Program-made: the position numbers and the translations under genes
From: Isurus oxyrinchus
Taxonomy: Eukaryota
Direction: 5' to 3'
NCBI GenBank assembly: GCA_026770705.1
Contig: JANJGN010000102.1
Coordinates: 310,001-374,000, forward strand
Length of the DNA stretch: 64,000 bases
The notes under the pieces: model-generated
Database searches by the model: none
Told to the model about the DNA's origin: nothing
What the model saw: only the letters and a program-made list of their open reading frames with translations
Part shown: positions 11,489 through 59,209 of the stretch, piece by piece
Layout of the letters: the number at the start of each line of letters is the position of its first letter
How positions within the stretch are numbered: position 1 is the stretch's first letter

Positions 11489-11639
11489 TAGGTGGAGATA
11501 GGTGACAGATCAGACATGATCTCGCTGAATGGTCAAAGTCTTCCTGTTCTGTCTATTTGGGGGGTGATCTGCTTAATTTTGAAGATGCGAGCTCTGCTGC
11601 TAACACCCCCTTTCAAGTTTTTAACCTTGTGCCTTCCAG

Positions 11640-14900: not shown

Positions 14901-15700
14901 CCGATCATTAACACTGGGGTACAGTCGGTCATTAACACTGGTGTATAGCCGTCATTAACACTGGGATATACTGATCATTAACACTGGGATATACTGATCA
15001 TTAACTCTGGGATACATTTATCATTAACACTGGGATACACTGATCATTAACACCGGGGTATACTGATCATTAACACTGGGGTATGCTGATCATTAACACT
15101 GTGGTATGCTCATCATTAACAATGGGGTACAGTCCATCATTAACACTGGGGTACACTGATCATTAGCACTGGGGTACGGTCCATCATTAATACTGGGATA
15201 TACTGATCATTAACACTGGGATATCCTGATCATTAACACTGGAGTACAGTCCGTCATTAACACTGGGATATACTGATAATTAACACTGCGATATCCTGAT
15301 CATTAACACTGGGGTACACTGATCATTAACTCTGGGGTGCACCGATCATTAACTCTGGGATACAGTCCGTCATTAACACTGGCGTATAGCCGTCATTAAC
15401 ACTGGGATATACTGATCATTTACACTGGGATAAAGTGATCATTAACACTGGGGTACACTGACCATTAACACTGGGATACACTGATCATTAACACTGGGCT
15501 ACACTGAACCTTAGTACTGGGATACACTGATCATTAGCACCGGGGTTTACTGAACATTAGCACTGGGGTACAATCCATCATTAACACTGGGATATACTGA
15601 TCATTTACACTGGGGTACAATGCATCATTAACACTGGGGTACACTGATCATTAACATTTGGGTAAAGTCCATCATTCACAGTGGGATACAGTATGTCATT
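11914..15700 (+). repeat. 23-24-bp minisatellite (CATTAACACTGGGGTACACTGAT variants), ~160 units
   Basis: Direct inspection; the array begins in the last codons of the alpha2 exon. Confidence 0.95.
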
Positions 15701-15719
15701 AACAGTGCGACACAGTAAC

Positions 15720-19923: not shown

Positions 19924-20421
19924 CACACAGTCACAAACATGCTCAGTCACAAACACAGTCATGCACAAATACACATACACATACACACACATACACAGTC
20001 AAAGTCATGCTCAGTCACAAACACAATCACGGACAAACACGCACATACAGACAAAAATATGCTCAGTCACAAACTCAGTCACGCATGCACACACACACAC
20101 ACAGTCACAAACACAGTCACACACAAGCACACATACACACAGTCACAAACATGCTCAGTCACAAACACAGTCACACATTCACACAGTCACAAACATGCTC
20201 AGTCACAAACAGTTACACACACAGTCACACAGTCACAAACACACAATCACAGTCACAGACATACACACAAAGTCACAAATCTGCTCAGTCAAACAAGTCA
20301 CGCATACACACACATACACAAACAATGCACACACACAAACGTGTACACACAGACTCATACAAGCGCACACATATTACATACAAATACAGAATTAAACTAA
20401 CTAATACCCTTTGATTTACAG

Positions 20422-20542
20422 AGGCAACAACGTCAATCATAAAAACCCAGTACAGATTGCAATCTGCGCAGTCGGCTTTGTGATTGGTGCCCTGGGAATG
20501 ATGACTGGCATCTGCCTGATTTTCTACTAGCGGGGAAATGAG
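20422..20542 (+). pseudogene. WA connecting-peptide/TM exon (class II alpha-type TM), frameshift near exon start
   Basis: Acceptor TTGATTTACAG; NNVNHKNPVQIAICAVGFVIGALGMMTGICLIFY*RGNE then GTAAAT. CxxGxxxGxxGxxxG is the class II alpha TM motif. TAG at 20528-20530. Confidence 0.85.
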
Positions 20543-20814
20543 GTAAATCGATTTAATTGTCTCTGGGGGCGGATATCTCTGACCTTCCAGCCAAACAAAT
20601 TGCTGAGAAATGGGTTTCTCTCCAAACTCCTCTTTGTTAATGAACTATGCTCAGCACCGGCAACAATCAGCACAGGAGAAATTAAACTGTTCACGGTGGA
20701 ATGAGTTTGAGGTTGTTTGTATTGATTACTCAAATCTCACACCAAACTGCATGGGGTAGGGTAAAACTTGAATGAGACCAGTAAAGAACTCTGTTCTCAG
20801 TTGAAAATTTGTTG

Positions 20815-22628
20815 GGGACGGTGTAGAGGGAGCTTTACTCTGTATCTAACCCCGTGCTGTACCTGTCCTGGGAGTGTTTGATGGGGACGGTGTGGAGGGA
20901 GCTTTACTCTGTATCTAATCCCGTGCTGTACCTGTCCTGGGAGTGTTTGATGGGGACAGTGTAGAGGGAGCTTTACTCTGTATCTAACCCTGTGCTATAC
21001 CTGTCCTGGGAGTGTTTGATGGGGACAGTGTAGAGGGCGCTTTACTTTGTATCTAACTCCGTGCTGTACCTGTCCTGAGAGTGTTTGATGGGGATGGTGT
21101 AGAGGGAGCTTTACTCTGTATCTAACCCTGTGCTGTACCTGTCCTGGGAGTGTTTGATGGGGACAGTGTAGAGGGAGCTTTACTCTGTATCTAACCCCGT
21201 GCTGTACCTGTCTTGGGAGTTTGATGGGGACAGTGCCCCATGCTGTACCTGCCCTGGGAGCGTTTCATGGGGACAGTGTAAAGGGAGCTTTACTCTGTAT
21301 CTAACCCCGTGCTGTACCTGTCCTGGGAGTGTTTGATGGACACGGTGTAGAGGGAGTTTTAAACTTTATCAAAACCCGTGCTGTACCTGTCCTGGGAGTG
21401 TTTGATGGGGACGGCATTGAGGGAGCTTTACTCTGTATCTAACCCCATGCTGTACCTGCCCTGGGAGTGTTTGATGGGGACAGTGTAGACAGAGCTTTAC
21501 ACTGTATCTGACCCCATGCTGTACCTGTCCTGGGAGTGTTTGATGGGGACGGTGTGGAGGGAGCTTTACTCTGTATCTAATCCCATGCTGTACCTGTCCT
21601 GGGAGTGTTTGATGGGGACAGTGTAGAGGGAGCTTTACTCTGTATCTAACCCCGTGCTGTGCCTGTCCTGGGTGTGTTTGATGGAGACGGTGTAGAGGGA
21701 GCTTTACTCTGTATCTAACCCCGTGCTGTACCTGTCCTGGGAGTGTTTGATGGGGACAGTGTAGAGGGAGCTTTACTCTGTATCTAACCCCGTGCTGTAC
21801 CTGTCCTGGGAATGTTTCATGGGGACAGTGTAGAGGGAGCTTTACTCTGTATCTAACCCCGTGCTGTACCTGTCCTGGGAGTGTTTGATGGGGACGGTGT
21901 GGAGGGAGCTTTACTCTGTATCCTACTCCGTGCTGTACCTGTCTTGGGAGTGTTTGATGGGGACGGTGTGGAGGGAGCTTTACTCTGTATCTAATCCCAT
22001 GCTGTACCTGTCCTGGGAGTGTTTGATGGGGACAGTGTAGAGGGAGCTTTACTCTGTATCTAACCCCGTGCTGTGCCTGTCCTGGGTGTGTTTGATGGAG
22101 ACGGTGTAGAGGGAGCTTTACTCTGTATCTAACCCCGTGCTGTACCTGTCCTGGGAGTGTTTGATGGGGACAGTGTAGAGGGAGCTTTACTCTGTATCTA
22201 ATCCCGTGCTGTACCTGTCCTGGGAATGTTTCATGGGGACAGTGTAGAGGGAGCTTTACTCTGTATCTAACCCCGTGCTGTACCTGTCCTGGGAGTGTTT
22301 GATGGGGACGGTGTGGAGGGAGCTTTACTCTGTATCCTACCCCGTGCTGTACCTGTCTTGGGAGTGTTTGATGGGGACAGTGTAGAGGGAGCTTTACTCT
22401 GTATCTAACCCCGTGCTGTACCTGTCCTGGGTGTGTTTGATGGGGACGGTGTAGAGGGAGCTTTACTCTGTATCTAACCCTGTGCTGTACCTGTCCTGGG
22501 AGTGTTTGATGGGGACAGTGTAGAGGCAGCTTTATACCATATATAACCCCGTGCTGTACCTGTCCTGGGAGTGTTTCATGGGGACGGTGTAGAGAGAGCT
22601 TTACACTGTATCTAACCCTGTGCTTCAA
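20815..22628 (-). repeat. 69-bp satellite array (~26 units)
   Basis: Reverse complement of the unit at 1-901; source of the 23-aa-periodic ORF 21369-22628. Confidence 0.95.
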
Positions 22629-24826
22629 TACCCCTGGACTAAGGAGGCTTCAGACATCCTGGTTCCCTGATCTCCTTGCCAGTGAGCCCTATCCATTTGG
22701 GACAGTTTCGGTTTGGCTATAGTCCTACCTCCAAGGTCGATTAGCCTACCGAGATCTACCACATGCATGAAGAACAGCTGCCAGGGTGTGCTATCTGAGG
22801 CCCATGGAAACTACAGCCCTTAAAGCAGCAGGGGAGAACGGCGGGTGGGCAGAATATTGAATCTGATGGCTGGGTGCTCGGTTTGGCAGACACCCAGCAC
22901 TACAAATATCTTTTGTCACAAATAAGGTGGGGTCCAGGGATCAGCAAACCATACCTGCGGAGGAGCCACAGGACTCGATGCTGAATGGAGAAGGGGCACA
23001 AGATGAAGGGACCCGTGTGGATCGGAGTGATCCAAACCAACCAGCAGAATGTTGAGCCAATCTGTGTCCTAATCTGATTTCACACACACACTCTTGTTCC
23101 TCAAAACTGTGTTTCCTTCAAAAAAAATTACATAATTTCTGCAAACGTGATACTGTTTTATTGTTAATTTTNNNNNNNNNNNNNNNNNNNNNNNNNNNNN
23201 NNNNNNNNNNNNNNNNNNNNNNNNNNNNNNNNNNNNNNNNNNNNNNNNNNNNNNNNNNNNNNNNNNNNNNNNNNNNNNNNNNNNNNNNNNNNNNNNNNNN
23301 NNNNNNNNNNCTCTCTCCCTGCCACTTTGAGGTTTGAAAGCACTTCCTCATTCCAGGGATGAGGAACTTGAGTAACATAGAATCGTTGGCTGGCACAGCA
23401 CAGAAGGAGGTCATTCAGCTCATCGTGCCTGTGCTCTCTGTTTGAAAGAGTGGTCCAATTGGTCCCCTATTCTCCAAGGCTAAAATTTTTCCCCTTCAAG
23501 TATTTCTCCAATTCCCCCTTTTTGAGCGTGAATCTGCTTCCACTGCCCTTTCAGGCAGTGCCTTCCAGATAACAACTCGCTGCGTCAAAAAAATTCTCCT
23601 CATTTCCCCCTCTGGTTCTTCCACCGATTCTCTCCAATCTGTTTGCACCACCCAATCCACGCCCCCCCCCCCCCCCCACCCCCCCTCTGGTTACCGCCCC
23701 ACCTGCCACTGGAAACAGTTTCTCCTTATTTACTCAATTGAAACCTTTCATGATTTTGGATGCCTCGATTCAATCTCCCCTTTAACCTTCTCTGCACCAA
23801 GGAGAACAATCCCAGCTTCTCCAGTCCCTCCACATGAACTGAGGTCCCCTCATCCCCGGGAACCGTTCTGGTAAATCTCCTGTGCCTTCCCTGGTACAGG
23901 AGATGGTACTGAGGGAGTTCCGTGGATGGATTGGAGAAGTTGGGAGTGTTCTCCTTGGGAAGAGAAAGTTGAGAGGAGATTTGAAAGAGGTGTTCAAAAT
24001 CTCAAGAGGCTCTGGGACAGAGTAGATAGGGAGAAACTGTTCCCATTGGCGGAAGGATTGAAAACCAAAGGGACACAGATTTAAGGCGGTTGGTAAAAGA
24101 AGCAATGGGGACATGAGGAGAAACTTTTTCATGCAGTGAGTGGTTAGGATCTGGAATGTGCTGCCTGAGAATGTGGTGGAGGCAGGGTCAATCGAGGCTT
24201 TCCGAAGGGGAATTGGTTCATTATCTGAAAAGGAAGAATGTGCAGGGTTACGGGGAGAAGCCATGGGATGGCACCAGTTGAATTGCTCATGCAGAGAGCC
24301 AGTGCAGACACGATGAGCCAAATGGCTTGCTCCCCGTGACGTAGCAATTTGGTGATTCTGATTAACTGCCCAGAGATGCTCACATCTGTGGACGGCAGCT
24401 GAAGACTATGGTTGATTCTGCTGCCTTCACATGCGTTTTGAGCGCAGAGTCGAAGACCGAGAACATAGGAGGCCATTCAGCCCCTCAGGTCTATTCCCCC
24501 ATTCAACAAGATCACGGCTGATCTGTGACCTATATCCAGATACCCACCTTTGCCCCAAATCCCTTAATACCTTTGGCTAACAAAAATCTCTCAATCTCAG
24601 TTTAAAATTAACTGACCCGGCATTAATTGCCATTTGGTGAAGAGAGTTCCAAACTCCGACCACCCTTTGTGTGTCGAAGTCTTTCCTCATTTCACTCTCA
24701 TTTTTGGACTCTGCCCTCTCATCCCAGGCTTCCCCAACCAGCGGGAAACAGTTTCCCTCTGTCAACACTCTCAGTTCCCCTTAATGTCCTGAAAACTTTG
24801 ATTAAATCACTCCCTGAATCTTCTAA
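21488..24826 (+). repeat. Source segment of the inverted duplicate at 31910-35051
   Basis: Near-identical ORFs in opposite orientation (e.g. 23782-24321 vs 32415-32954). The diagnostic satellite variant at 21488-21520 matches 35019-35051. Confidence 0.93.
23172..23310. other. Assembly gap (139 N)
   Basis: N run; the equivalent position in the inverted copy holds a (CA)n microsatellite (~33431-33490). Confidence 0.98.
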
Positions 24827-30327: not shown

Positions 30328-30633
30328 GAAAGGTTGACCGTCTGCAAGAATGCTCAAAGGCTCAAGAGGGCCAAAGATGCCTCTAAATTGAATAGGCAGA
30401 AGGGACAGTCTCTGTCATCTGGATTGAAGGGCCCCGTGTGAAATGGTGATCAGGGGCGCCAGTCCACGCCAGCCAAATATCAGCACCAGAAACCTGAGGT
30501 GGGGCTTCTCTGGACAGGACTGAAAACCGACCCCACATCACTTGTCAACCGACTGGGGAGAGACGGAGGCAGAGGCTGGTATGTGGGGAAGAACTGGAAA
30601 TGGGTGGCACTCAGCGTAACCAGAGTTGTAAAG
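30328..30633 (+). pseudogene. Exon upstream of the TM exon: either a short ATG exon (30600-30633) or a decayed Ig-V exon
   Basis: Strong donor G|GTAAGA. ATG at 30600 gives MGGTQRNQSCK in phase 1. Ig-like pieces AQEGQ, SVIW, GWYV, VTRVV lie in mixed frames upstream. Confidence 0.4.
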
Positions 30634-31404: not shown

Positions 31405-31521
31405 GATTACAGGATCTGTGCTGCAGTTCCCTGATGTGGACCATCTTAGGGGCCACAGGATTTTTCCTGTTCCTCTCTGTGACTTGTAACATTCTCTGCT
31501 GTGCTCGGAGCTACAGAAAAG
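31405..31521 (+). CDS. TM exon of a small transmembrane adaptor/receptor (TRAT1/SIT1-like TM)
   Basis: Phase 1-1, 117 nt, CTGGCAG / G|GTAACA; GLQDLCCSSLMWTILGATGFFLFLSVTCNILCCARSYRK. Confidence 0.7.
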
Positions 31522-31781: not shown

Positions 31782-33429
31782 AGATAAAAACAAAGAAAAC
31801 TGCGGATGCTGGAAATCCAAAACAAAAACAGAATTACCTGGAAAAACTCAGCAGGTCTGGCAGCATCGGCGGAGAAGAAAAGAGTTGACGTTTCGAGTCC
31901 TCATGACCCTTAGAAGATTCAGGGAGTGATTTAATCAAAGTTTTCAGGACATTAAGGGGAACTGAGAGTGTTGACAGAGGGAAACTGTTTCCCGCTGGTT
32001 GGGGAAGCCTGGGATGAGAGGGCAGAGTCCAAAAATGAGAGTGAAATGAGGAAAGACTTCTACACACAAAGGGTGGTCGGAGTTTAGAACTCTCTTCACC
32101 AAATGGCAATTAATGCCGGGTCAGTTAATTTTAAACTGAGATTGAGAGATTTTTGTTAGCCAAAGGTATTAAGGGATTTGGGGCAAAGGTGGGTATCTGG
32201 ATATAGGTCACAGATCAGCCGTGATCTTGTTGAATGGGGGAATAGACCTGAGGGGCTGAATGGCCTCCTATGTTCTCGGTCTTCGACTCTGCGCTCAAAA
32301 CGCATGTGAAGGCAGCAGAATCAACCATAGTCTTCAGCTGCCGTCCACAGATGTGAGCATCTCTGGGCAGTTAATCAGAATCACCGAATTGCTACGTCAC
32401 GGGGAGCAAGCCATTTGGCTCATCGTGTCTGCACTGGCTCTCCGCATGAGCAATTCAACTGGTGCCATCCCATGGCTTCTCCCCGTAACCCTGCACATTC
32501 TTCCTTTTCAGATAATGAACAAATTCCCCTTCGGAAAGCCTCGATTGACCCTGCCTCCACCACATTCTCAGGCAGCACATTCCAGATCCTAACCACTCAC
32601 TGCATGAAAAAGTTTCTCCTCATGTCCCCATTGCTTCTTTTACCAACCGCCTTAAATCTGTGTCCCTTTGGTTTTCAATCCTTCCGCCAATGGGAACAGT
32701 TTCTCCCTATCTACTCTGTCCCAGAGCCTCTTGAGATTTTGAACACCTCTTTCAAATCTCCTCTCAACTTTCTCTTCCCAAGGAGAACACTCCCAACTTC
32801 TCCAATCCATCCACGGAACTCCCTCAGTACCATCTCCTGTACCAGGGAAGGCACAGGAGATTTACCAGAAAGGTTCCCGGGGATGAGGGGACCTCAGTTC
32901 ATGTGGAGGGACTGGAGAAGCTGGGATTGTTCTCCTTGGTGCAGAGAAGGTTAAAGGGGAGATTGAATCGAGGCATCCAAAATCATGAAAGGTTTCAATT
33001 GAGTAAATAAGGAGAAACTGTTTCCAGTGGCAGGTGGGGCGGTAACCAGAGGGGGGGTGGTGGGAGGGGGTTCAAACAGATTGAAGAGAATCGGTAGAAG
33101 AACCAGAGGGGGAAATGAGGAGAATTTTTTTGATGCAGCGAGTTGTTGTGATCTGGAAGGCACTGCCTGAAAGGGCAGTGGTAGCAGATTCACGCTCAAA
33201 AAGGGGAAATTGAATAAATACTTGAAGGGGAAAAATTTTATCCATGGAGAATAGGGGACCAATTGGATGGCTCTTTCAAACAGAAAGCACAGGCACGATG
33301 AGCTGAATGACCTCCTTCTGTGCTGTGCCAGCCAACGATTCTATGTTACTCAAGTTCCTCATCCCTGGAATGAGGAAGTGCTTCCAAACCTCAAAGTGGC
33401 AGGGAGAGAGAGAAGGGCAGAATGTTAAA

Positions 33430-33479
<50 letters not shown>

Positions 33480-35145
33480 AAATACACACACTACTTACAA
33501 AGTCTAAAATTAACAATAAAACAGTATCACGTTTGCAGAAATTATGTAATTTTTTTTGAAGGAAACACAGTTTTGAGGAACAAGAGTGTGTGTGTGAGAT
33601 CAGATTAGGACACAGATTGGCTCAACGTTCTGCTGGTTGGTTTGGATCACTCCGATCCACACGGGTCCCTTCATCTTGTGCCCCTTCTCCATTCAGCATC
33701 GAGTCCTGTGGCTCCTCCGCAGGTATGGTTTGCTGATCCCTGGACCCCACCTTGTTTGTGACAAAAGATATTTGTAGTGCTGGGTGTCTGCCAAACCGAG
33801 CACCCAGCCATCAGATTCAATATTCTGCCCACCCGCCGTTCTCCCCTGCTGCTTTACGGGCTGTAGTTTCCATGGGCCTCAGATAGCACACCCTGGCAGC
33901 TGTTCTTCATGCATGTGGTAGATCTCGGTAGGCTAATCGACTTTGGAGGTAGCACGACAGCCAAACCGAAACTGTCCCAAATGGATAGGGCTCACTGGCA
34001 AAGAGATCAGGGAACCAGGATGTCTAAAGCCTCCTTAGTCCAGGGGTATTGAAGCACAGGGTTAGATACAGTGTAAAGCTCTCTCTACACCGTCCCCATG
34101 AAACACTCCCAGGACAGATACAGCACGGGGTTAGATACGGTATAGAGCTGCCTCTACACTGTCTCCATCAAACACTCCCAGAACAGGTACAGCACGGGGT
34201 TAGATACAGAGTAAAGCTCCCTCTACACCGTCCCCATCAAACACTCCCAGGACAGGTACAGCACGGGGTTAGATACAGAGTAAAGCTCCCTCTACACCAT
34301 CCCCATCAAACACACCCAGGACAGGTACAGCACGGGGTTAGATACAGAGTAAAGCTCCCTCTACACCGTCCCCATCAAACACTCCCAGGACAGGTACAGC
34401 ACGGGGTTAGATACAGAGTAAAGCTCCCTCTACACTGTCCCCATCAAACACTCCCAGGACAGGTACAGCACGGGGTTAGATACAGAGTAAAGCTCCCTCT
34501 ACACCGTCCCCATCAAACACTCCCAGGACAGGTACAGCACGGGGTTAGATACAGAGTAAAGCTCCCTCTACACCATCCCCATCAAACACACCCAGGACAG
34601 GTACAGCACGGGGTTAGATACAGAGTAAAGCTCCCTCTACACCGTCCCCATCAAACACTCCCAGGACAGGTACAGCACGGGGTTAGATACAGAGTAAAGC
34701 TCCCTCTACACCGTCCCCAACAAACACTCCCAGGACAGGTTCAGCACGGGGTTAGATACAGAGTAAAGCTCCCTCTACACCGTCCCCATGAAACATTCCT
34801 GGGACAGGTACAGCACGGGGTTACATACAGAGTAAAGCTCCCTCTACACTGTCCCCATCAAACACTCCCAGGACAGGTACAGCACGGGGTTAGATACAGA
34901 GTAAAGCTCCCTCTACACCGTCCCCATCAAACACACCCAGGACAGGTACAGCACGGGATTAGATACAGAGTAAAGCTCCCTCCACACCGTCCCCATCAAA
35001 CACTCCCAGGACAGGTACAGCATGGGGTCAGATACAGTGTAAAGCTCTGTCGAAGGGTCATGAGGACTCGAAACGTCAACTCTTTTCTTCTCCGCCGATG
35101 CTGCCAGACCTGCTGAGTTTTTCCAGGTAATTCTGTTTTTGTTTT
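31782..35145. mobile_element. Composite insertion: inverted Penelope tail, 3.1-kb captured genomic copy, Penelope tail; 13-bp TSD
   Basis: TSD ACACAAAATCCAG at 31769-31781 and 35146-35158. Tails at 31784-31911 (-) and 35046-35145 (+). The host SINE is split and resumes after the TSD. Confidence 0.88.
34049..35051 (+). repeat. 69-bp satellite array inside the captured segment
   Basis: Direct inspection. Confidence 0.95.
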
Positions 35146-36297: not shown

Positions 36298-36522
36298 GGG
36301 GACGGTGTAGAGGGAGTTTTGCTCAGTATCTAACCCCGTGCTGTACCTGTCCTGGGAGTGTTTGATGGGGACTGTGTAGAGGGAGCTTTACTCTGTATCT
36401 AACCCCGTGCTGTACCTGTCCTGGGAGTGTTTGATGGGGACGGTGTAGAGGGAGCTTTACTCTGTATCTAACCCTGTGCTGTACCTGTCCTGGGAATGTT
36501 TGATGGGGACAGTGTAGAGGCA
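36298..36522 (-). repeat. 69-bp satellite, ~3 units
   Basis: Direct inspection. Confidence 0.9.
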
Positions 36523-36547
36523 GTTTTATGCCTGTATACTTTGGACT

Positions 36548-37050
36548 ATGTCAGTATTTACAGGCGGTCTCGAGGGAGCGTGTCAATATTTACAGGGTGT
36601 CTATGGGGAGTGTGTGAGTATTTACAGGGGATACCGGGGAGTGCGTCAGTATTTACAGGGGTTCCCCGGGGAGTGTGTCAGTATTTACAGGGGGCCCCTG
36701 GAGAGTGTGTCAGTATTTACAGGGGATACCGGGGAGTGTGTCAGTATTTACAGGGGGTACCGGGGAGTGTGTCAGTATTTACAGCGGGTACCGGGGATGT
36801 GTCAGTATTTACAGGGGGTCCCCGGGGAGTGTGTCATTATTTACAAGGGGTACCGGTGAGTGTGTCAATATTTACAGGAGACCTCTGGAGAGTGTGTCAG
36901 TATTTGCAGGGGTACCGGGGCGTGTGTCAGTATTTACAGGGGGTCCCCGGAAGTGCGTCAATATTTACAAGGGATCCCCGGGGTGTGTGTCAGTGTTTAC
37001 AGGGGGTCCCCGGGGACTGTGTCAGTATTTACGGGGGTCCCCAGGGAGTG
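36548..37050 (+). repeat. ~31-33-bp minisatellite (GTGTGTCAGTATTTACAGGGGGTACCGGGGA)
   Basis: Direct inspection. Confidence 0.9.
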
Positions 37051-39912: not shown

Positions 39913-40020
39913 CAAAGTTCATTAACCGGGCAGGACCATGTCGGATGAATCCATGCAATTCCAGTATGCGGTCCAGTAGCTCAAACACTTCTAACTCCTC
40001 CAACACCAGGTGCTCTTCAG
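39913..40020 (+). CDS. Ser-rich cytoplasmic exon of the TM adaptor/receptor
   Basis: TTTTTCTGTTTCCAG / CAG|GTAACT, 108 nt, phase 1-1; AKFINRAGPCRMNPCNSSMRSSSSNTSNSSNTRCSS. Confidence 0.6.
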
Positions 40021-47949: not shown

Positions 47950-48760
47950 AATCTGAAAACCGAATAACTACTGCTGTAGAGAGGGCTTTAAACTGATTAG
48001 GGGGTTGGGGAGGGGTAGGGCTCTGGAGAGGGGATACTTAGGCTTGCAAAGCAAAAGGATATGGCAGCGTTGCAGGGCAGCTATTTAGGTAATGACATCC
48101 CGAGTGTGACAGGAAGGGACAGTGTGTGCAAACACAAAAAAAAGCAGCAAATAGGGTCAAGGGGAGGGGTGCGGGGGAATGATTAAAAGGCAAAATTAAT
48201 GGATTTTTATTTAACTGCACATAGTATTCCAAACAAAAATAAATGAATTAATGGTACAAATAGAGCTTAGTGTATATGATCTTATAGCCGTGATGGACAC
48301 ATGGTTACAAGGAGATCAAAGCTGGGAACTAAATATTCAGGGGCATGTGACTTTTCGAAAGGACAAGCAGGAAGGAAAGGGTGGCAGGTAGCTTTGTTAG
48401 CATGAGGTGGAATAAGTACGTTAGCAAGAAATGATCTTGGATCGGGAGATGTGGAACCCATATGGGTGGAGGTAAGAAATAATAAGGGGAAGAAGACATT
48501 GGTGGGAGTAGTCTATAGGCCCCCTAACAGTAGCTAATCTGTAGGACAGAGAATAAATCAGGAGATAATGAGGGCATGTAAAAAAGGCAGTATATTAATC
48601 ACAGGTGACTTTAATCTTCATGTAAGTTGGGTAAATCAAATTGGCAGAGGTAGCCATGAGCAAGAATTCATAGAGTGTATTTGGGACAGTTTCCTAGCAC
48701 AATATGTTATGGATCTAATCAGGGATCAGGCTATTTTGGATCTGGTAATCTGTAATGAGG
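47950..48760 (+). mobile_element. CR1 ORF2 APE endonuclease fragment
   Basis: YLTAHS..NK, DTWLQ, VGVVYRPP, ITGDFNL, ILDLV motifs. Confidence 0.85.
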
Positions 48761-49494
48761 TGAGTTGCTGCAGTGCATCTTGTAGATGGTACACACACTG
48801 CTGCCACTGTGCGTCAGTGGTGGAGGATGTGAATGTTTGTGGATGTGGTGTCAAACAAGCGGGGTTGCTTTGTCCTGGAAGGTGTCGTGCTTCTTGAGTG
48901 TTTTTGGAGCTGCACTCATCCAGGCAAGTGGAGAGTATTCCATCACACTGCTGACTTGTGCCTTGTAGATGGTGGACAGACTTTGGGTGATCAGGAGATG
49001 AGTTACTTACCTGGTCTTGTAGCTATAGTATTTATGTGTCTGGCCCAGTTCAGTTTCGGGTCAGGATGTTGATAGTGGGGCAATTCAGCAATAATAATGC
49101 CATTGATTGTCAAGGGCAATGGTTAGATTCTCCCTTGTTGGAGATAGCCATTGACTGGCACTTAGGTGGCACGAACATTAGTTGCCACTTATCAGCCCAT
49201 TCTATGGTGTTTAGGAGAATGAGAAGTGATCTCATTGAAATGTATGAAATTCTGGGAGTGTTTGACTGGGTCGATGCTGAGAGGCTGTTCCCCATCTTTC
49301 ACCCCCCATTCCCACCTCCAGCTGGAGAGCCAAGAACAATAGAACATGCGGGGCGGCGGGAGGGCGGGTCACAGTCTCAGGGTGAGGGGTCAGCCATTTC
49401 AGACTGAGATGAGGGGAAAATTCTTCACTCCGAGGGTTATGAATCTTTGGAATTCTCAACCCCAGAGGATTGTCAGTCACATTTGATATGGAGA

Positions 49495-50045
49495 TCGAGA
49501 GATTTCCCGGCATTGAGGGAATTAAGGGATATGGGGGTGGACAGAGAGTAGAGATAAATTTTTGATTGGGGGATTAAGGGATACCAGGAGTGGGAGAAGG
49601 AGCGGAGGTAGATTTTTGGATTTTTGATTGGGGGGATTAAGGGATACGGGGAGTGGGTGAAGATAGATTTTTGATTGGGGGATTAAGGCATACGAGGAGT
49701 TGGCGGAAGGTGAAGATAGATTTTTGACTGGGGGATTAAGGGATGCGGGGAGTGGGTGGGAAAGTGGAGATAGGTTTTTGATTGGGGGATTAAGGGATGC
49801 GGAGGAGTGGACGGGAAAGCGGAGATAGATTTTTGATTGGGGGATTAAGGGATACGGGGAGTTGGTAGAAGGTGAAGATAGATTTTTGACTGGGGGATTA
49901 AGGGATGTGGGGAGTGGGTGGGAAAGTGGAGATAGGTTTTTGATTGGGGGATTAAGGGATGCGGGGGAGTGGGCGGGAAAGCGGAGATAGATTTTTGATT
50001 GGGGGATCAAGGGGTACAGGGAGCGGGCAGAGGGTGGAGATAAAT
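49495..50045 (+). repeat. ~53-bp minisatellite derived from the CR1 ORF2-end/3' UTR
   Basis: About ten AGATAGATTTTTGATTGGGGGATTAAGGGATACGGGGAGTGGGCGGGAAAGTGG units following a CR1 fragment. Confidence 0.85.
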
Positions 50046-50274
50046 TCAATAGGAGGTCTCAAAATGGAAATTGGATAAATATTTAAGGGGGAAAAATTTG
50101 CAGGATTATGGTGGGGAGACGGGCTGGGGTGGGGATTAATTGGACAGATCTGTCAAAGAGCCAACACAGGCACAATGGGCTGAATGGCCTCCTTCTGTGC
50201 TATGTAGTTCTATGGTTCAACCTCCTTAATCTGGGGGCACTGAGGTCAATGGAATTAGCCATGAAACCTGAATA

Positions 50275-50840
50275 AAACACTGATTCAGCCTCAACTGGAG
50301 TATTGTGTTCAATTTTGGGCACTGGAGTTTAGGAATGATGTGAAGGCTTTAGAGAGAGAGAGAGAGTGCAGAAAAGATTCACAAGAATGGTTCCAGGGAT
50401 GAGGGACTTCAGTTCCTTGGATAGATTGGTGTAGTTGTGAGTGTTCTCCTTGGAGAAGAGAAGGTTAAGAGGAGATTTGATCGAGGTGTTCAAAATCATG
50501 AGGGTCTCTGGGACAGAGTAGACAGGGAGAAACTGTTCCCATTGGCGGAATGGTCAAGAACCAGATGGACACAAATTTAATGCGGTTGGCAAAAGAAGCG
50601 ACGGAGACCCGAGGGGAAACTTTTTCACACAGCGAGTGGTTGGGATCTGGAATGCACTGCCTGAGAGTGTCGAGGAGGCAGAGTCAATTGAGGCTTTCAA
50701 GAGGGAATTGGGTCATTATCTGAAGAGGAAAAATGCGCAGGGTTACGGTGAGAAGGCCGGGGGTGTGGGGCTGGGTGCATTGCTCATTCGGAGAGTCAGT
50801 ACAGGCCTCTTCCTGCGCTGTGGCAGTTCTGTAGTTCTGA
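50275..50840 (+). mobile_element. CR1 3' fragment
   Basis: PQLEYCVQFW ... FFTQRVVGIWNALPE. Confidence 0.88.
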
Positions 50841-51106
50841 GAGCTCATGAGTATGAGTCAGTCATCTCCTGTGTTGCTGTGGACGAGGGGGTGACACGGA
50901 GGGAGAGAAGGATAAGGTGAGTGAGGGATGAGTTATTGAACATAGAGAAAGGAAGGAAATTGCTTGGGGGTGGGTGTGGTGTGGTGGTGGTATGCGGAGG
51001 GAGGCTGCGGGAGTGAGGAAGGGTCAATTTGACCCAGTTTGCTTCGGAATGGGCGGTTGTCAGTCTTACGTTAATGCATTAAGTGTCTGCTTTCTCTTCC
51101 TTCCAG

Positions 51107-51364
51107 GAGCACACATTTTGCAGGCACAGTTCTCCATCGAAAAATCTCATCATTCAGCAGTTAGCCTGAGGTTCGCTTATGAAGGAACAGAACTCATCCA
51201 GTTCAACTACATCACCAATCAGTTCGTGGCCACTGAGCCGCTGGCAAAGTCTTTCGCTGAGCAACTTAACAGCGACCAGAAGAAGGTCAGAAGGTACATT
51301 CGCTATGGCTCCTTTGCAAATCTGGTGTCAGATGTGGTTTTACGGGCCACTCGCCAACTGATCG
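51107..51364 (+). pseudogene. MHC W-category beta chain (WB) beta1 exon (open, class I alpha2-like)
   Basis: TTTCTCTTCCTTCCAG / G|GTAAGT, 258 nt, phase 1-1; GAHILQAQFSIEKSHHSAVSLRFAYEGTELIQFNYITNQFVATEPLAKSFAEQLNSDQKKVRRYIRYGSFANLVSDVVLRATRQLI. Confidence 0.87.
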
Positions 51365-51546
51365 GTAAGTGCGGAAAAGAGCGGGTAGGGTGGGGGTGGG
51401 AGCGAGAAGTGAGATTAATTGGTTAGAACTTTCAAAGAGCTAACACGGGCATGGTGGGCAGAATGGCATCATCCTGGGCTGTGGGGTGCGGTGTGTTACC
51501 GCATCAAGCATGTACACACGTCAGGAGGCCCCAGCTGACTGAACTC

Positions 51547-52324
51547 TGTCATGAAGTTATTAATGTATACAATATTTTGGAAAATATTTTTCCTTTGAAA
51601 TAGAAGTTTAGTCTGCTGGTGTGTCTTAATTGGATTACAGTCAGCTAGTCTGGGTGCTTGGATATGTACTAGTTTGAGATGTAAACAGAGGGGTAGAGTG
51701 TATTTGCATTTTTTGAATAGAGCATTGAAGAAGTGGGGTGAAACCTTGATGCCTTTCTAGCAGATACCAAGCAATATGTTTTTATTGCTAATAAAATTGG
51801 TACAATGAATGGGGTTTTATTGTTAAAAGGTAAAGTTCAAAGAGTCTGGTCAGACAATGAGAATTTGAATTCAATCAGGGGTGGTAGGTATAACTTCAGT
51901 AGTTTTTGGGTGTGAAAGCAGAGGCAATGTGAGATCAAAAGGCAGCTGCAAGCCTCCAGCTGGCTCCAGAGTGAAAGGAGCCTCATTTTGAATTTGTAAG
52001 GTGAAAATGCTTTGCCTGGTGTTTGGTTAAGTCTATGGGTTGCTGTTGCCCTAATGGAGATTAGTTTGGGAATTTGTTAAAAGATGTGATAGTAGTAATT
52101 TGCCGCCATGTGTATATATATATATATATATTCTAAACCTGTGCAAATTAATAAAATGTTTCAATTAGTTTAATGTAAACCCTGAAGAACTGATGGTCTG
52201 ATTCCTGAATTTAGAGTCGCATCTCGAACATAACACTTAAAATTATAGCTTATGACAGTTGTTTAAAGTTTCCCTCTGGGATTTTTTAAATAACTCCATT
52301 TTACCAACAGCATTGGTCATAACA
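51547..52324 (+). mobile_element. Solo LTR (778 bp, Gypsy-like)
   Basis: TGTCATGA...TCATAACA inverted termini, 4-bp TSD ACTC (51543-51546, 52325-52328), internal AATAAA. Confidence 0.85.
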
Positions 52325-52814
52325 ACTCTGCGCATGTAAAGAGTTGTGAGCACTTGGCCGGCCGGCAACAGTGGTGGGGGGAGTCATTGATGTTGTTCAC
52401 AGCTTGAGCTAATCGAGCAACTTTCCGAACCTCTCTGCATTTCCCTGCAGAGAGTGTCTTTTGCAGTCCACCTCGCTTGAGATCCTTCCTGTCAAAACTA
52501 CAACATTTTAACTGTTTATATATAATGTCTTTAACACAAGAAAAACATCCCTGAGGCACAACGTGCCAGGATTATGAAGCAACCTTTGACCCTGAGACAC
52601 GCCAGGAGATATAAGGGATGGGTGACCAAAAGCTTGCTCACAGAGGTCAATTTTTAAGGAGCATCTTAAAGGAGGAGAGAGAGGGAGAGGGAGAAGTTTA
52701 GGGAGGAAATTTAGGGCCCCAGGCAGCTGAAGGCACAGCCGTCAATAGTGGAGCGATAGAAATCGGGGGATGCTCAAAAAAACAGGTCTGGAGGGACACA
52801 GAGATCTCGAAGGG

Positions 52815-53095
52815 TTATAGGAGGTTACAGAGATAGGGTGGGTTGTTGGGGCTGGAAGAGGTCACAGAGGAAGGGAGGGTTGTAAAGGCTGGAGGAGGTT
52901 ACAGAAGTAGGGAGGGGTGTAGGGGCTGGAGGAGGTTACAGAGATAGGGAGGGTTGTAGGGGCTGGAGGAGGTTACAGAGATAGGGAGGGTTGTAGGGGC
53001 TGGAGGAGGTTACAGAGATAGGGAGGGTTGTAGGGGCTGGAGGAGGTTACAAAGGTAGGGAGGGTTGTAAGGCTTGGAGGAGGTTAAAGAGGTTA
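52815..53095 (+). repeat. 32-bp minisatellite (GGAGGTTACAGAGATAGGGAGGGTTGTAGGGGCT-like), interrupted by a CR1 and resuming at ~54178
   Basis: Direct inspection. Confidence 0.85.
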
Positions 53096-54177
53096 AATTG
53101 GCTGTCTGGCAGGAGGCAGAGAGTGGGGATAAGGGGGTCCTTCTCAGGATGGTGGCCGGTGACTAGTGGACTTCTGCAGGGCTCAGTGTTGGGAGCACAA
53201 CTTTTCACATTATACATTAATGATCTAGATGAAGGAACTGAGGGCATTCTGGCTAAGTTTGCAGATGATACTAAGATAGGTGGAGGGACAGGTAGTATTG
53301 AGGAAGCAGGGAGGCTGCAGAAGGAGTTAGACAGGTTAGGAGAATGGGCAAAGAAGTGGCAGATGGAATACAATGTAGGGAAGTGTGAGGTCATGTACTT
53401 TGGTAGAAGAATAGAGGCATAGACTATTTTCTAAATGGGGAGGGAATTCAGAAATCTGGAGTGCAAAGGGACTTGGGAATCCTAGTCCAGGATTTTCTTA
53501 AGGTTAACTTGCAGGTTGACGTGGTAGTTAGGAAGGCAAATGCAATGTTGGCATTTATTTCGAGAGGACTAGAACATAAAAGCAGGGATGTGCTGCTGAG
53601 GCTTTATAAGGCTCTGGTCAGACCACATTTAGAATATTGTGAGCAATTTTGGGCCCCGTATCTCAGGAAGGATGTGCTGGCCCTAGAGAGGATCCAGAGG
53701 AGGTTCATGAGAATGATCTCAGGAATGAAAGGCTTAACATATGAGGACTCTGGGTCTATACTCAATGGAGTTTAGAAGGATATGGGGGGATCTGATTGAA
53801 ACTTACAGAATACTGAAAGGCCTGGATAGAGTGGATGTGGGGAAGATGGTTCCATTAGTAGGAGAGACTAGGACCTGAGTGCACAGCCTCAGAGTAAAGG
53901 GAAGACCTTTTAGAACAGAGATGAGGAGAAACTTCTTTAGCCAGAGAGTGGTGAATCTATGGAATTCATTGCCACAGAAGGCTGTGGAGGCCAGGTCATT
54001 GAGTGTATTTAAGACCAAGATAGATAGGTTCTTGATTGGTAAGGGGATCAGAGGTTACGAGGAGAAGGTGGGAGAATGAAGTTGAGAAACATTTTATGCC
54101 ATGATTGAATGGCGGAGCAGACTCGATGGGCCGATTGGCCTAATTTCTGCTTCTATGTCTTATGGTCTTATGGTCTA
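53096..54177 (+). mobile_element. CR1 RT/3' fragment
   Basis: VTSGLLQGSVLG, KFADDTKIGG, RPHLEYCEQFW, (TCTTATGG)n tail. Confidence 0.93.
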
Positions 54178-54603
54178 AGAGATAGGGAGGGTTGTAGGAG
54201 CTGCAGGAGGTTGCCATAAGATGTAGGAGCACAAGTAGGTCATTCGGCCCATCCAATCTGCTCTGCCATTCAATGAGATTATGGCTGATCTGATAAACCT
54301 CAAATCCGCTTCCCTGCCTTTTCCCCATAACCCTTGATTCCCTTATTGGTTAAAAGTCTGACACTTCCCTCCATGTCCAGCCACACAGCAAAGATGCTCT
54401 CAGGCGGTGTACTTGAATGATAGAATTTTGCAGCACCAAAGGAGGCCATTCAGCCCATTGACTCTGTGCTATAAATCTGCTGAGGCCACTGGAATTTTCA
54501 TTAATCTGGATTGAGGAAATCTGGGTGATTTTATCTGAAGTCTTTTCTGCTCTGCCGCATTTTCTGAGGAGTTTTGAATCCATTGGCCTTCCATCTTCTG
54601 TAG

Positions 54604-54683
54604 CCAAGCCTTCCATCAACATAACCACCCTCCGCTTGCACCCTTACTTCTGATCTGCCGTGTGGATGGATTTTATCCAAGAG
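54604..54683 (+). pseudogene. WB beta2 Ig-C1 exon, frameshifted and 3'-truncated
   Basis: Acceptor TCTTCTGTAG, phase 1; AKPSINITTLRLHP / LLICRVDGFYPR, then homology stops. Confidence 0.8.
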
Positions 54684-55922
54684 TATAGCTCAGTATAGTT
54701 TTCTTATTTGTAAATAAATCTACCCATTAGTTTTAGCCTGAACGGAATGATTTACTTATAGTATCTACAATGTTTAAAGTCAGGAGGAGGATTATTTTGG
54801 AACTAAAGGGTGATTGTTAATGTACGAGCTTTCAGGGTGTGAGCAAAGGCGTAGGCTTTGACTCACAGGGCGCTTAAACTTCATTTAAATAAAATGTCAT
54901 TCTGTCTCACAAGAGGCTCTTCAGTGCCTTTGGTCTACAAAGGGAGGATGGCGATTCCTGCCTATTTCAATTCTGCAATTAACGGGTGTTTGCTTAGGCA
55001 AGGGTAGGTGTACAGGTCAGCCATGAGCTAACTGAACGGCAGGTGGAACAGGCTCAAGACACAGAATGGCCTGTTCCTGTGCTCTGATCAACATTCAGTT
55101 ACACAACATTGAGCTTGGCAATGGGCCCTCCGCTGTTGAAAACCTTGCTGATGTTCACATGAGGAGGAGGAGTGGGCCAGAGGGCAACCAGCACCCATGG
55201 AGCGTAAGCCCTATTGACTTCAGGGAGAGAGGTGAGAAGACTTGGCAGAATCTGTTACATTAGCCAGCGTCCATGTTGATCTGACTTGTTAACACAGATC
55301 TGTAATAAAAATGCAGCAAAGTCTTTGTGAAGTTCTGGGGAAGAAACAGAGGAAGCATTCAAAAGCAAAACTGCATGTATTGTTAAAACATGGATTCATT
55401 TCTTTTCATTTCCTTCTAGACTCCTTCTAGACTCCTTCTAGTGGTACATGTTTGTATGGTAGCCTTGAGCAGACAAAATGCACATTGCAATTTTCAATAC
55501 ACTGCGGTCATGTATATCCAAAGCCACTGATTAATGAGTGGTGTCTATTAACAGTGCATAGCACCAGAGAGTGCTGGGGCTTTAGCCTGCATATGCACAA
55601 GAGCCTCTTGTGAGACAGAATGACATTTTATTTAATGAAGTTGTTCCTCTCATTGGCAAGCTTAGCTGCATCCCTGGGGCAGCAATGTGCAGGGACGGGT
55701 GCAGCAGAAACGTCACTTGATTGGTTTCTGGCACTTTGTAGAAGCAAGATGCCAGGGATGTAGATGCCCGCCTGACAGCAGCCATGCCTGCCCACCCGCC
55801 CTCCCGTCTGTGTTGTGGCCCATAATCTCAAGGTGCCCAAGGGCCTGGGGAAAGAAACAAAGTTGTTCATACTAACCCGGCGCTGTGATATCTTCCGACC
55901 CTAATTCTACTTCGTTCCCCAG

Positions 55923-56024
55923 CTCCTAAGATGAAAAGCTGGCCGACTTACGGATACGTGACCGGGATAGTATTCATGATACTTGGAATCATAGCCCTGG
56001 CTGGAGGAATCAGCAGGTGGAGAG
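55923..56024 (+). pseudogene. WB connecting-peptide/TM exon (class II beta-type TM)
   Basis: TTCGTTCCCCAG / G|GTAGGA, 102 nt; xPKMKSWPTYGYVTGIVFMILGIIALAGGISRWR. GxxxxxxGxxxxxxG register as in class II beta TMs. Confidence 0.85.
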
Positions 56025-56074
56025 GTAGGAATATTGATGCATGTTCTAACCAACTCAGAAACTCCACCTGTTTG

Positions 56075-56485
56075 GCAATGATGAGAGATGGTAGTGTTGT
56101 GGTAATGTCACTGGACTAGTAACTCCAGAAGCCCAGGCTAATACTCTGGGGACACAGGGTATTCAAACCCCACCCCAGCTGCTGGTGGAATTTAAACTCA
56201 GTTAATAAAATCCAGAATTGGAAGCCAGTCTCAGTGATGGTGACCGTGAAACTACCATCGAATGTCATAAAAACCCCACCTGGTTCACTAATGTCCTTTA
56301 GGGAGGGAAATCTGCCGTCCTTACCCGGTCTGGCCGACACGTGACTCCAGACCCACAGCAATGCGGTTGACTCTTAACTGTCCCTCTGAAGTGGCCCTTA
56401 GCAAGATACTCAGTTTAGGGGGCAATTACAGACGGGCAACGATTGCTAGCCACGCCCACATCCCATGGAAGGATAAAGAAAAATG
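56075..56485 (+). mobile_element. HE1-type SINE
   Basis: tRNA-like head and CR1/HER1-like tail; an inverted homolog lies at 56870-57290. Confidence 0.75.
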
Positions 56486-56726
56486 ATGTGCCTCCATGAG
56501 AGGGTGGCATGACAGATTTGTGTTTATAAGCCCCTGTGTACACAAAACCAGCCAGCCCATGAGTTCAGCCGTCACTTCCATCTTTCCCCCATTAGGTGTT
56601 CCTGGATTGCAGAATGTGTTTCACTGGGGGATGGGTTTCACTGATTTCCGAGAGGATAGGGGCTGGCGGTGGGGAAGAGAGTGTCAGCCAAGGATTCGGA
56701 GCTAATGTTGACTATTTCTTTCCCAG

Positions 56727-56813
56727 GGCTCCATGCCTGTGGCTCACAACCTGAACCAAACCAGAGTCAAGTCAACACGCATTCCAATGCGTATTCCTCT
56801 AACACGGATTTAG
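56727..56813 (+). pseudogene. WB cytoplasmic exon 1
   Basis: TTTCTTTCCCAG / G|GTAACA, 87 nt, phase 1-1; GLHACGSQPEPNQSQVNTHSNAYSSNTDL. Confidence 0.65.
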
Positions 56814-57323
56814 GTAACAGAGTGACATTTGGTCTCTGCACTGTAGCACGCGTGCACAAGCACTTAATTTTCTTTTGTCCTTTCATGGGGATGTGGGCAT
56901 TGCTGGCTAGCCCAGTATTTGTTGCCCATCCCCAATTGCCCCTTGAACTGAGTGGCTTGCTAGGGCCTTTCAGAGGGGAAGTTAAGAGTCAACCCCCACT
57001 GCTGTGGGACTGGAGTCATGTGTAGGCCAGACCAGGTAAGGACGACAGATTTCCTTCCCTAAAGGACATCAGTGAACCAGATGGGGTTTTTACGACAATC
57101 GATGCCTAAAGGACAGCAGTTTTTACAACAAAGAAATCAATGCTATGAATATCTCGTTTTATATTCCAGATTTATTAATTAAATTTAAATCCCACCAATT
57201 GCTGTGTTGGGATTTGAACCTGTGCCCCCAAAGCATTAGCCTGGTCCTCTTAACTGTAAGTCCAGTGACAATACCACAATTCCACTGTCTCCTCAATGGT
57301 GCACTGTGTCTATAACCTCGCAG

Positions 57324-57647
57324 CTAAGTTCTGGATGGGAACTGCACTGTTGCTGAGGTGTGTGAAACTCATCCTCCACATTAGCATGAGCTCTGCCCAA
57401 CCTGCTTCAACTCTTGAGGTTCTTCAATCTTCCCAAGGACCCTTTCCCCAACTTCCTTCCCGATCTCAGTCCGGTAACTCCTGACGGAAAGCATGCAGGC
57501 AGACACAAGGCAAGGACGTTATCGGACCTGGCCGATGCTCACAGTCTGGCCTCCCACACAATGCACAACTCCTCAGATGAGCATAGAGGGTCTATGGACT
57601 CTGTGCCCCTGCAAGAGGCAGCGACTGCAGAGAAAGACAGATTGTAG
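57324..57647 (+). pseudogene. WB candidate cytoplasmic exon 2 (frameshifted)
   Basis: CCTCGCAG / AG|GTAAAC; protein-like frame FFNLPKDPFPNFLPDLSPVTPDGKHAGRHKARTLSDLADAHSLASHTMHNSSDEHRGSMDSVPL. Confidence 0.5.
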
Positions 57648-57669
57648 GTAAACACCGAGAGAGACTATA

Positions 57670-57980
57670 GTGAAAGAGAGACATGCTGCCAAAGCTTTTC
57701 ATCTTGGACTCCTCAGGACGAACCTAAGAATGCCAACTGTCAGGCGATCACAACAGTTTATACTAGGGAGAAAGGTGCCAATTGGTTGGCAGGTTGACTC
57801 TGATTGGCCGAGGAGTTACCATGGAGAAAGCAACAGGGAACCATTGGCTCCCTGAACTCCCGAGTAATTCAGAAAAGACACAAACCTTGAACATGTTTCT
57901 TTTGCTTGCAGAGGGTGGGGCCCTGTGTATGAATGTATGTCACTTCGAGCAAGCATAAATGAGCCACATTACGTGCTTGA
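57670..57980 (-). mobile_element. Putative Penelope-like terminal fragment with hammerhead-like motif (57691-57716)
   Basis: Minus strand CTGAGGA-GTCCAAGAT-GAAA-AGCTT; homolog of 8250-8530. Confidence 0.55.
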
Positions 57981-58305
57981 CTGATTATCTTAAATTGGTT
58001 GTTAGTGTCACTTGGCGCACTCAGGATTGTTCAGCAAATGCTGCACTTTGTCCTGACAAAAACATTGTTGGCAACACATCCCCTTTTCCAGCCATATTAA
58101 GTTCTGTGCTGTCAATTGACTGATGGTGAAATTACAGCAGCATTATAATTATCTTCTAAAATTAACGTGCTAGCACCATTCACGTAGCCCTATACAGCTG
58201 CTCGGCAGCAATGGAGAATGTAACAGGAATTGGAGCGTTACAAACAATACTAAACTCTTGTTACCTGTAGATATCTGTCATCCCCTCTTGCACTTTTCTT
58301 CCCAG

Positions 58306-58585
58306 GAGTATGGACACAGGGGGAGGCTAATCACCTCTATGTGGAAAGTGAACGGACTCCCAGACCCATACCCACTTGAAACGGAGCATCAAACTCAGAA
58401 CCCCCAACCCTCCCCATCCCCCTCCCAGATATCTGGAGACTGAGAGACGTCGGCTGAATCTGCCTCCACTCACCTTCCGAAAGAGCGTGTCCTGTGGAAC
58501 CATGAGTCGGAATTCAGTCCAATCGATCACTTCAGAGACTGACTCAGAGGAGCTGACTCTGCGATACAATACACCTCTGGTTTAG
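58306..58585 (+). pseudogene. WB candidate last exon (two nonsense codons); polyA signal AATAAA at ~58793
   Basis: CTTTTCTTCCCAG, phase 2; SMDTGGG*SPLCGK*TDSQTHTHLKRSIKLRTPNPPHPPPRYLETERRRLNLPPLTFRKSVSCGTMSRNSVQSITSETDSEELTLRYNTPLV*. Confidence 0.55.
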
Positions 58586-59209
58586 TCTGTTTATTTAACT
58601 CTTACTACTCCAGGCTCTGTTAACCTGCGAGAAAAAAACTCATGGCTACTGTTCCACCCTTATTTAATTGATATAATTCTCACGTGGCTCCTGCTTGTAG
58701 TTACTCCACCGTCACTTGTTACTTTCTGGATTGTTAAAATACATGAACGAGAATTATAAATGGAAACGAAATATACAAAAACATAGGAACCAAATAAACT
58801 TTAATAGAAAATATGGATCCTCACACACAGAAGAATTAGGCTTTTGTTAATATAGATATAAACCTGATTGAAATTATTGGCTTTAATGTACAGCTCTCCC
58901 AATGATCTCCGATGCCACATTTGGCATCATTTGTTGATGTGACGGAGTTAGCAAAGTGCAGCAGTCAATTCATCATTAATTGCCCCCTTAAGGGCCCCAA
59001 CTGGGGCTAGGGCTGGCCTTGGCTTCTAGGCTTCGTCCATCCCACTGTAAAATTTTGGACAGGCTGGGCAGGCTGGAGGATGAAATCTCCCCACCAACTA
59101 GTCCGACAGTCCAGGAAAATAAAAGCTAAGCTCATTCATCTGGATTTCCACTCATGGGTGCTCATTCGTCCTTCAATCTTCGACACTGAATGCTCTTTTC
59201 AAACCAAAT

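Follow-up and report, generated by a model that had tools for sequence, protein, structure and literature searches.

A leaderless tandem duplicate of the W-category gene WB-DS1 in Isurus oxyrinchus is probably a transcribed chimeric pseudogene

We have analysed a 64,000-nucleotide (nt) stretch of the Isurus oxyrinchus genome (the window; positions 310001-374000 of contig JANJGN010000102.1, hereafter C102) that carries a copy of WB-DS1, a beta chain gene of the W category of the major histocompatibility complex (MHC). Coordinates given without a contig name are window positions. The copy is a tandem duplicate of an intact WB-DS1 gene on the same contig, and has neither the leader exon nor the WA partner of that gene. 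The end of the W cluster was duplicated together with a gene for a SIT1-like adaptor as a unit of roughly 70 kb; the duplication junction set the first two exons of the adaptor ahead of a tail exon of WB-Nds5L; and deletions removed WA-DS10L, the leader and most of the beta2 exon. The explanation we favour, and consider probable, is that the window copy is a transcribed chimeric pseudogene yielding no working MHC chain. The rearranged copy, along with the conserved chimeric frame of which it is part, is probably debris.

The copy is assigned by its sequence to subgroup DS1 of the WB genes, a family in print since 2021 (PMC8713811; our comparisons draw on parts of its main text and on rows of its Datasets S1-S3, and the WA and WB subgroup names used here were assigned by eye-matching to its white-shark rows). 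An initial annotation of the window had called a W-category beta chain, and direct orthology to published DS1 together with the gene structure bears this out. The limits it gave, 51107 and 56024, are the first base of the beta1 exon and the last base of the transmembrane (TM) exon, and the beta1 motifs it quoted are present in the translation of 51107-51364. By eye, 78 of the 86 beta1 residues are identical to the row 'great white shark WB DS1L' of PMC8713811. In a database search, one protein of white shark and one of basking shark matched at 91% (90.7%) identity with E about 1e-41, so that the similarity is not due to chance. The class I-type residues H3, Q6, A32 and G35 (numbered as in PMC8713811; H93, Q96, A117 and G120 in HLA-A2) align with the HLA-A alpha2 row of Dataset S1, as the initial annotation had it. 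Position 37 (class I-type D37, HLA D122), which it did not mention, is E in the window beta1 and likewise in seven of the eight published DS1 rows. The published WB DS1 chains (PMC8713811; XP_041035565.1, XP_078391005.1) have the same H3, Q6, A32, G35 and E37, and like the window copy have no Cys pair. The TM exon carries class II beta-type glycines and is one residue off the white-shark row of Dataset S3.

The initial annotation had pointed to the absence of the groove disulfide. That the domain has no Cys at all is correct, and the lack is a trait of the DS1 subgroup. None of the eight published DS1 rows has a Cys pair in beta1, and nine of ten DS1-like database proteins have no Cys in this domain, the remaining protein having one; at least two are found in all 11 class II rows and in most of the class I rows compared. 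Because the bond is common to class I alpha2 and class II beta1, its absence is not a class I-like feature. The missing pair is visible in the rows of PMC8713811 and is undiscussed in the parts of its main text considered here.

The layout of a class II beta-type gene (leader, beta1, beta2, TM, tail) is present in the intact copy at C102:282661-291183, ~76 kb upstream of the window copy, where all exons are open and spliced and the leader lies directly before beta1. It is not present in the window copy (Table 1). As had been noted, beta1 and TM are open and beta2 is broken, the damage to beta2 being larger than was described. A 13-nt deletion after 54640 causes a frameshift, with a stop at 54651-54653, and a further 293 nt of the intact copy are gone after 54683 (189 nt of exon, the donor and 104 nt of intron), leaving the 3' two thirds of the exon deleted. 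The lost stretch includes the positions of P57 and G61 (no W61), both present in the intact copy. The beta1 exon differs from that of the intact copy at 12 nt, and an N-glycan sequon was lost among these changes. A search for the leader exon over the 464 kb around the W cluster that our local searches covered gave a single match, at the intact gene, and none at the window copy; a leader scan likewise gave no candidate between the tail exon and the window beta1, whilst recovering the true leader upstream of the intact gene. The window copy also has no head-to-head WA neighbour, the WA-DS10L alpha1 exon being single-copy and beside the intact gene. Three beta1 copies are present in the genome, all on C102, and only one intact DS1 beta2. 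Compared with published WB DS1, then, the window copy is without leader, WA partner, usable beta2 and glycan sequon, and has foreign exons in front.

Table 1. Exons of the window copy and its chimeric frame, rearrangement landmarks, and the WA/WB pairs of the W cluster (window positions unless C102 is given)
Feature	Position	Strand	Remarks
SIT1-like adaptor exon 1 (ATG)	30600..30633	+	duplicated stub
SIT1-like adaptor exon 2 (TM)	31405..31521	+	duplicated stub
Tandem-duplication junction	36298..37050	.	minisatellites; adaptor intron 2 to the left, WB-Nds5L intron to the right
Ser-rich cytoplasmic exon of WB-Nds5L, duplicated	39913..40020	+	phase 1/1; third exon of chimeric frame
Stepwise-deletion zone	48695..50033	.	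removed WA-DS10L exons and WB-DS1 leader exon
WB-DS1 beta1 exon	51107..51364	+	open, 258 nt, AG/GT, phase 1/1, no Cys
Beta2 (immunoglobulin (Ig) C1) exon remnant	54604..54683	+	80 nt; acceptor 54604; homology stops at 54683
Connecting peptide/TM exon	55923..56024	+	102 nt, class II beta-type, 1 silent difference from intact copy
Cytoplasmic exon 1	56727..56813	+	skipped in some isoforms of intact gene
Cytoplasmic exon 2 with stop codon	58306..58379	+	
Pair 1, WA-DS5L	C102, 240-243 kb	-	head-to-head with WB-Nds5L
Pair 1, WB-Nds5L	C102, 246-257 kb	+	head-to-head with WA-DS5L
Pair 2, WA-DS10L	C102, 274-276 kb	-	head-to-head with WB-DS1L
Pair 2, WB-DS1L	C102:282661-291183	+	head-to-head with WA-DS10L
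Pair 3, WB-DS3L	C102, 300-305 kb	-	head-to-head with WA-Nds3L
Pair 3, WA-Nds3L	C102	+	head-to-head with WB-DS3L

Since leader, beta2 and partner gene are all missing, the window copy cannot supply a W heterodimer. The initial annotation had paired it with the WA gene in the window, which does not hold: that gene is WA-Nds3L, it is broken, and it stands head-to-head with WB-DS3L, the true partner of WB-DS1 being WA-DS10L. A 'repaired WA+WB' model built from the window would accordingly join the wrong chains, because the window WA belongs to another pair. In this genome, W-category function rests on the intact upstream gene, which would form a class II-shaped heterodimer with WA-DS10L. A WA+WB surface heterodimer of this shape, with class I-type interfaces, is described for salamander chains (PMC8713811), and P57 is a contact of WB beta2 with WA alpha2; intact W molecules are described as having no full set of peptide-anchoring residues and low polymorphism (PMC8713811, PMC8812513, in the parts considered).

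A nonclassical class I heavy chain gene or a conventional class II beta gene is another reading to be weighed. Pfam gives MHC_II_beta at E 0.0029 and MHC_I at E 0.023 (alpha2 half), both under the cut-off, and the best MHC-like PDB sequence match (E 0.44) ranks under three FabG chains, whose own matches (E 0.014-0.027) we judge to be chance; these searches alone do not classify beta1. In our tree of 51 domains and 92 columns (labels were scanned for 44 of 150 database matches beforehand, seven unlabelled rows and two rows without the Ig motif were left out, and no class II exon of this genome is included), the best topology places beta1 inside a 10-row DS1-like set (Shimodaira-Hasegawa-like approximate likelihood ratio test (SH-aLRT) 96) and apart from class I alpha2 (SH-aLRT 97) and from an 11-row class II beta1 set (SH-aLRT 99); WB as a whole has no support. 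The phylogeny proposed in the initial annotation therefore separates beta1 from class II beta1 in its best tree, yet approximately unbiased (AU) tests of beta1 alone over the 92 columns rejected neither a forced grouping with class II beta (p 0.24) nor one with class I alpha2 (p 0.28), which speaks for these identities. Because the AU tests reject neither grouping, gene structure and direct orthology carry the family call, not the deep tree.

A model of the intact white-shark chain, computed from a 21-row alignment that included class I and class II rows (mean predicted local distance difference test (pLDDT) score 70, predicted template modelling (pTM) score 0.52), matches class II beta chains best, with E about 1e-14 but a root-mean-square deviation of about 13 Å. 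It confirms the type of domain but leaves class I and class II undistinguished; the modelled domain has the half-platform build of both, four strands followed by helices. A32- and G35-type residues are common to class I alpha2 and the window beta1. Both class I alpha2 and class II beta1 (11 of 11 rows with at least two Cys) are normally disulfide-bonded, whereas the window beta1 is not, and the nearest class I or class II domain is 23% identical to it, as against 91% for published DS1.

Gene organisation is more decisive. A class I alpha1 exon upstream of beta1, which the initial annotation had suggested seeking, was searched for with the four alpha1 exons of this genome and gave no match at E up to 1 in the 464 kb. 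None of the 33 MHC_I family matches in the genome lies on C102. In the intact copy the leader directly precedes beta1, and beta2 has P57 and G61 in place of W61. Hallmarks of a conventional class II beta gene thus fail, with G61 rather than W61 in the intact paralog and no Cys in beta1. Searched with the class II beta family, this genome gave no match at E 0.001 and two weak ones at E 1-2. A class I or conventional class II identity is ruled out by gene structure and direct orthology, and we attach almost no probability to it. The 33 class I exon matches fall at C21:93-100 Mb, C21:66.13 Mb and C16:53.77 Mb, many of them with stops, so that the class I genes sit on contigs other than that of the W cluster. 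The alpha2 exons L055, L059 and L063 make up a divergent set, and two of the three have fewer than two Cys.

The three head-to-head WA/WB pairs of the cluster are the same as those given for white shark in the rows of PMC8713811. The SIT1-like adaptor gene follows the W cluster, and the distal part of the cluster is repeated in units of about 70 kb, the window running from the last part of unit one into the first part of unit two. Collinear pieces across 48695-50033 jump from C102 265044 to 277625 and from 281882 to 283731, recording the deletions. The complete adaptor gene lies at C102:483910-491545, adjoining the W cluster, and stubs of its first two exons are found at C102 340600 and 413790. 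Unequal crossing-over at the junction minisatellites may have created the chimera, and the adaptor promoter would then drive it.

The rearrangement has produced a potential reading frame. Seven exons (two from the adaptor, the WB-Nds5L tail exon, beta1, TM and two tail exons) have AG/GT ends and are all phase 1, and encode a chain of 259 amino acids without a stop in both units. The first two exons of the SIT1-like adaptor gene of basking shark (LOC144672883) match the window stubs with one to two residues different, and the window copy lacks the tail exons with their tyrosines; the stub keeps the adaptor's Cys residues and one glycan sequon. SIT1 dimerises through a disulfide link. The SIT label comes from a Pfam PF15330 match of the basking-shark protein that is below the cut-off (24 of 27.6 bits, E 5.9e-05); a SIT family search of this genome missed the C102 adaptor gene, and its last exon alone gave no SIT match. 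The first hydrophobic segment of the 259-residue chain has a net charge of +1 before it and +5 after it. Membrane segments are oriented by the positive-inside rule, and this asymmetry predicts that the first TM segment is N-out, with beta1 cytosolic and the WB tail outside. By the charge count alone, beta1 would face the cytosol, the reverse of its orientation in an MHC chain, and would be unable to meet the WA alpha1 domain.

This predicted topology bears on whether the copy could encode a deliberately beta2-less W beta chain, brought to the surface by an unrecognised leader or with the first TM segment as a signal anchor and competing there for WA-DS10L. In favour of such a chain, what has been kept is beta1 and TM, through which it would touch WA alpha1 and the WA TM segment, but there is no leader candidate, the charge asymmetry favours N-out, the glycan sequon is lost and the P57 contact with WA alpha2 is deleted. 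We consider it very improbable.

Transcript evidence comes from four public runs of one sample (X1, X7, X8 and X9), presumed to be RNA and aligned as contigs on 50100-58700. In three of the four, beta1 carries the letters of the intact copy: X7, X8 and X9 each have a single contig over beta1, with 10, 10 and 11 differences from the window, the intact copy differing at 10 places in that stretch. The lengths of their unaligned pieces fit the spliced intact mRNA exactly (X9, 387 = 2+282+102+1; X8, 500 = 2+282+102+114). Run X1 contains a 142-nt piece with one difference from the window alongside a parallel piece with seven intact-type differences. Both arms lead into a 233-nt contig with one difference; its other 104 nt break down into 1+102+1 and so correspond to the TM exon as far as the point where the tail exons fork. 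From these piece lengths we infer a beta1-to-TM splice from a window-type copy in X1, and transcription of the copy, with beta1 joined directly to TM, is likely. In the intact gene the first tail exon (87 nt, C102:289519-289605) is skipped in run X8 and in white- and basking-shark RefSeq isoforms, and it is absent from one catshark and one sevengill protein.

Alternatively, the copy could be silent, the X1 signal reflecting either simplification of the contigs or an allele of the intact gene that has been converted and skips an exon. The beta1-TM joint is deduced from piece lengths, the 3' contig of X1 combines an intact-type letter at 51315 with window-type letters at 51349 and 51363, and the four runs represent one sample of presumed RNA, all of which would suit a silent copy. 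On the other hand, the 104 = 1+102+1 remainder follows the same rule that fits X9 exactly, and zero depth at 54692-54978 excludes read-through into the beta2 remnant; we also count against silence that X7, X8 and X9 have no window-type arm among the pieces listed. A silent copy is therefore unlikely in our estimation, slightly more so than the functional chimera discussed below.

A number of observations weigh against a pseudogene. The seven-exon frame and all its splice dinucleotides are intact in both copies in this genome, window-type beta1 is present in run X1, and the orientation that would strand beta1 in the cytosol is predicted from a charge count only. The white-shark RefSeq model XP_041035582.1 (LOC121272835, 'uncharacterized') is the same seven-part chain of 259 residues, 242 of them identical, and white shark too has an intact WB of its own besides this model, XP_041035565.1, apparently on the same contig. 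Relative to the parent exons there are 15 silent and 20 replacement changes, with 8.5% of silent sites (pS) and 3.3% of replacement sites (pN) differing, and the silent share is 43% versus about 25% in a neutral simulation. There is no indel in the 780 nt of the chain, compared with 28 indel events in 8189 nt of five aligned regions. The resulting pN/pS of about 0.4 is confounded, because the parent lineage (half of the path) and converted tracts are counted in; the selection signal is nonetheless not absent.

Such features could be those of a functional, young lamnid chimera: a two-pass protein in which the adaptor stub with its TM segment is retained and a Ser-rich linker plus WB beta1 replaces the tyrosine-bearing tail. 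In frame since before the white-shark split and with tissue-restricted expression, it would be a signalling-dead decoy, pairing as a subunit with the SIT1-like adaptor in dimers and thereby diluting the adaptor's signalling motifs. The frame and splice sites are kept in two species (on the white-shark side in a predicted protein only, in which beta2 is absent as in the window chain). Two residues are common to both chains and not found in the parents (H6R in the stub and C to S in the tail exon), which suggests one origin of the chimera before the species split. The beta1-TM splice in X1, the silent excess over the parent exons, and the cysteines and glycan sequon retained in the stub point the same way. 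All the parent exons are in phase 1, however, so that an in-frame chain is the default outcome, and the chance of a frame staying open through 18-36 random substitutions was 0.49-0.26 in simulation (49-26% of cases). In addition, gene conversion brings in clean sequence, the transcript evidence is confined to the beta1-TM joint within the aligned region, a half-platform domain would lie in the cytosol with no partner, and no such chimera was found for basking shark (3 matches among 10 candidates). We regard a functional chimera as unlikely, albeit the foremost alternative to a transcribed pseudogene.

The pattern of divergence is what leads us to prefer conversion as the reason why a pseudogene has open exons. 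Divergence between the window and intact copies is patchy and ignores exon borders: it is 4.7% in beta1, 3.2% over the 900 nt of intron that follow, 0.7-3.3% through much of the intron downstream of beta1 and about 1% around TM, compared with 10-12% in flanking introns, with 9-16% just upstream of beta1 and 7-15% before beta2. The 80-nt beta2 remnant has nine substitutions and two deletions relative to the intact copy. Since the low-divergence tracts cross introns, gene conversion fits them better than selection acting on exons; with the intact gene as donor, it may keep beta1 and TM open whilst the unconverted beta2 decays. Beta1 differs from that of the intact copy at six amino acids, and four of these changes are on the window side, including D26E and T36I at sites where the other DS1 rows mostly agree. 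The beta1 of XP_041035582.1 is more converted, lying one residue from the intact gene of white shark, whereas that of the window lies six from its own.

From this locus a complete W cluster can be mapped along with the adaptor gene beside it, and birth-and-death is seen together with patchy gene conversion. Several RefSeq proteins named 'class II beta-like' can now be recognised as WB-DS1. In the rows considered, the published white-shark WB DS1L (PMC8713811) has the end of beta1 and the TM of the chimeric model and the beta2 of the intact model; it is either a composite or a duplicate in white shark with beta2 still in place, and these rows call for caution. Were the chimera functional, an MHC domain would have been exon-shuffled out of MHC architecture and a half-domain re-used on the cytosolic side, at the same type of locus that has been proposed as the source of class I, likewise through exon shuffling. 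The contribution of this locus is modest, the feature stressed in the initial annotation having been known from the literature since 2021. Neither the rearranged copy nor its chimera was found in publications on W-category MHC, in citing papers or in work on SIT1 in shark, with the limit that the SI Appendix of PMC8713811 (Fig. S11) may describe extra white-shark copies; neither W-category nor SIT1 occurs in the main text of PMC10751288.

Over 35 kb (C102:346543-381854 versus 416568-451874), units two and three share 99.55% identity, which would reflect either a duplication that took place very recently or an assembled haplotype duplicate. The window WA-Nds3L (approximately 7760-8060, 11620-11930 and 20415-20545, with alpha2 near 11.7 kb) is broken in alpha1, alpha2 and TM, although the WB-DS3L next to it is intact. 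In the duplicates of this WA gene at C102 394-401 kb and 464-471 kb those exons are open, but the WB-DS3L copies that they flank are broken, so that a working WA-Nds3L/WB-DS3L pair would be split between repeat units. Intron 2 of the adaptor contains, in the window copy only, an inserted 3-kb inverted duplicate (31910-35047) of the region behind the WA TM exon (about 21630-24826). A WA intron carries a long minisatellite of about 23-nt units at 11914-15704, and a 69-nt minisatellite lies at 20808-22624. Intron 2 of the window WB contains a decayed reverse-transcriptase fragment at 53097-54176, which from its motifs we take to be like a long interspersed nuclear element (LINE); the intact copy has none there.

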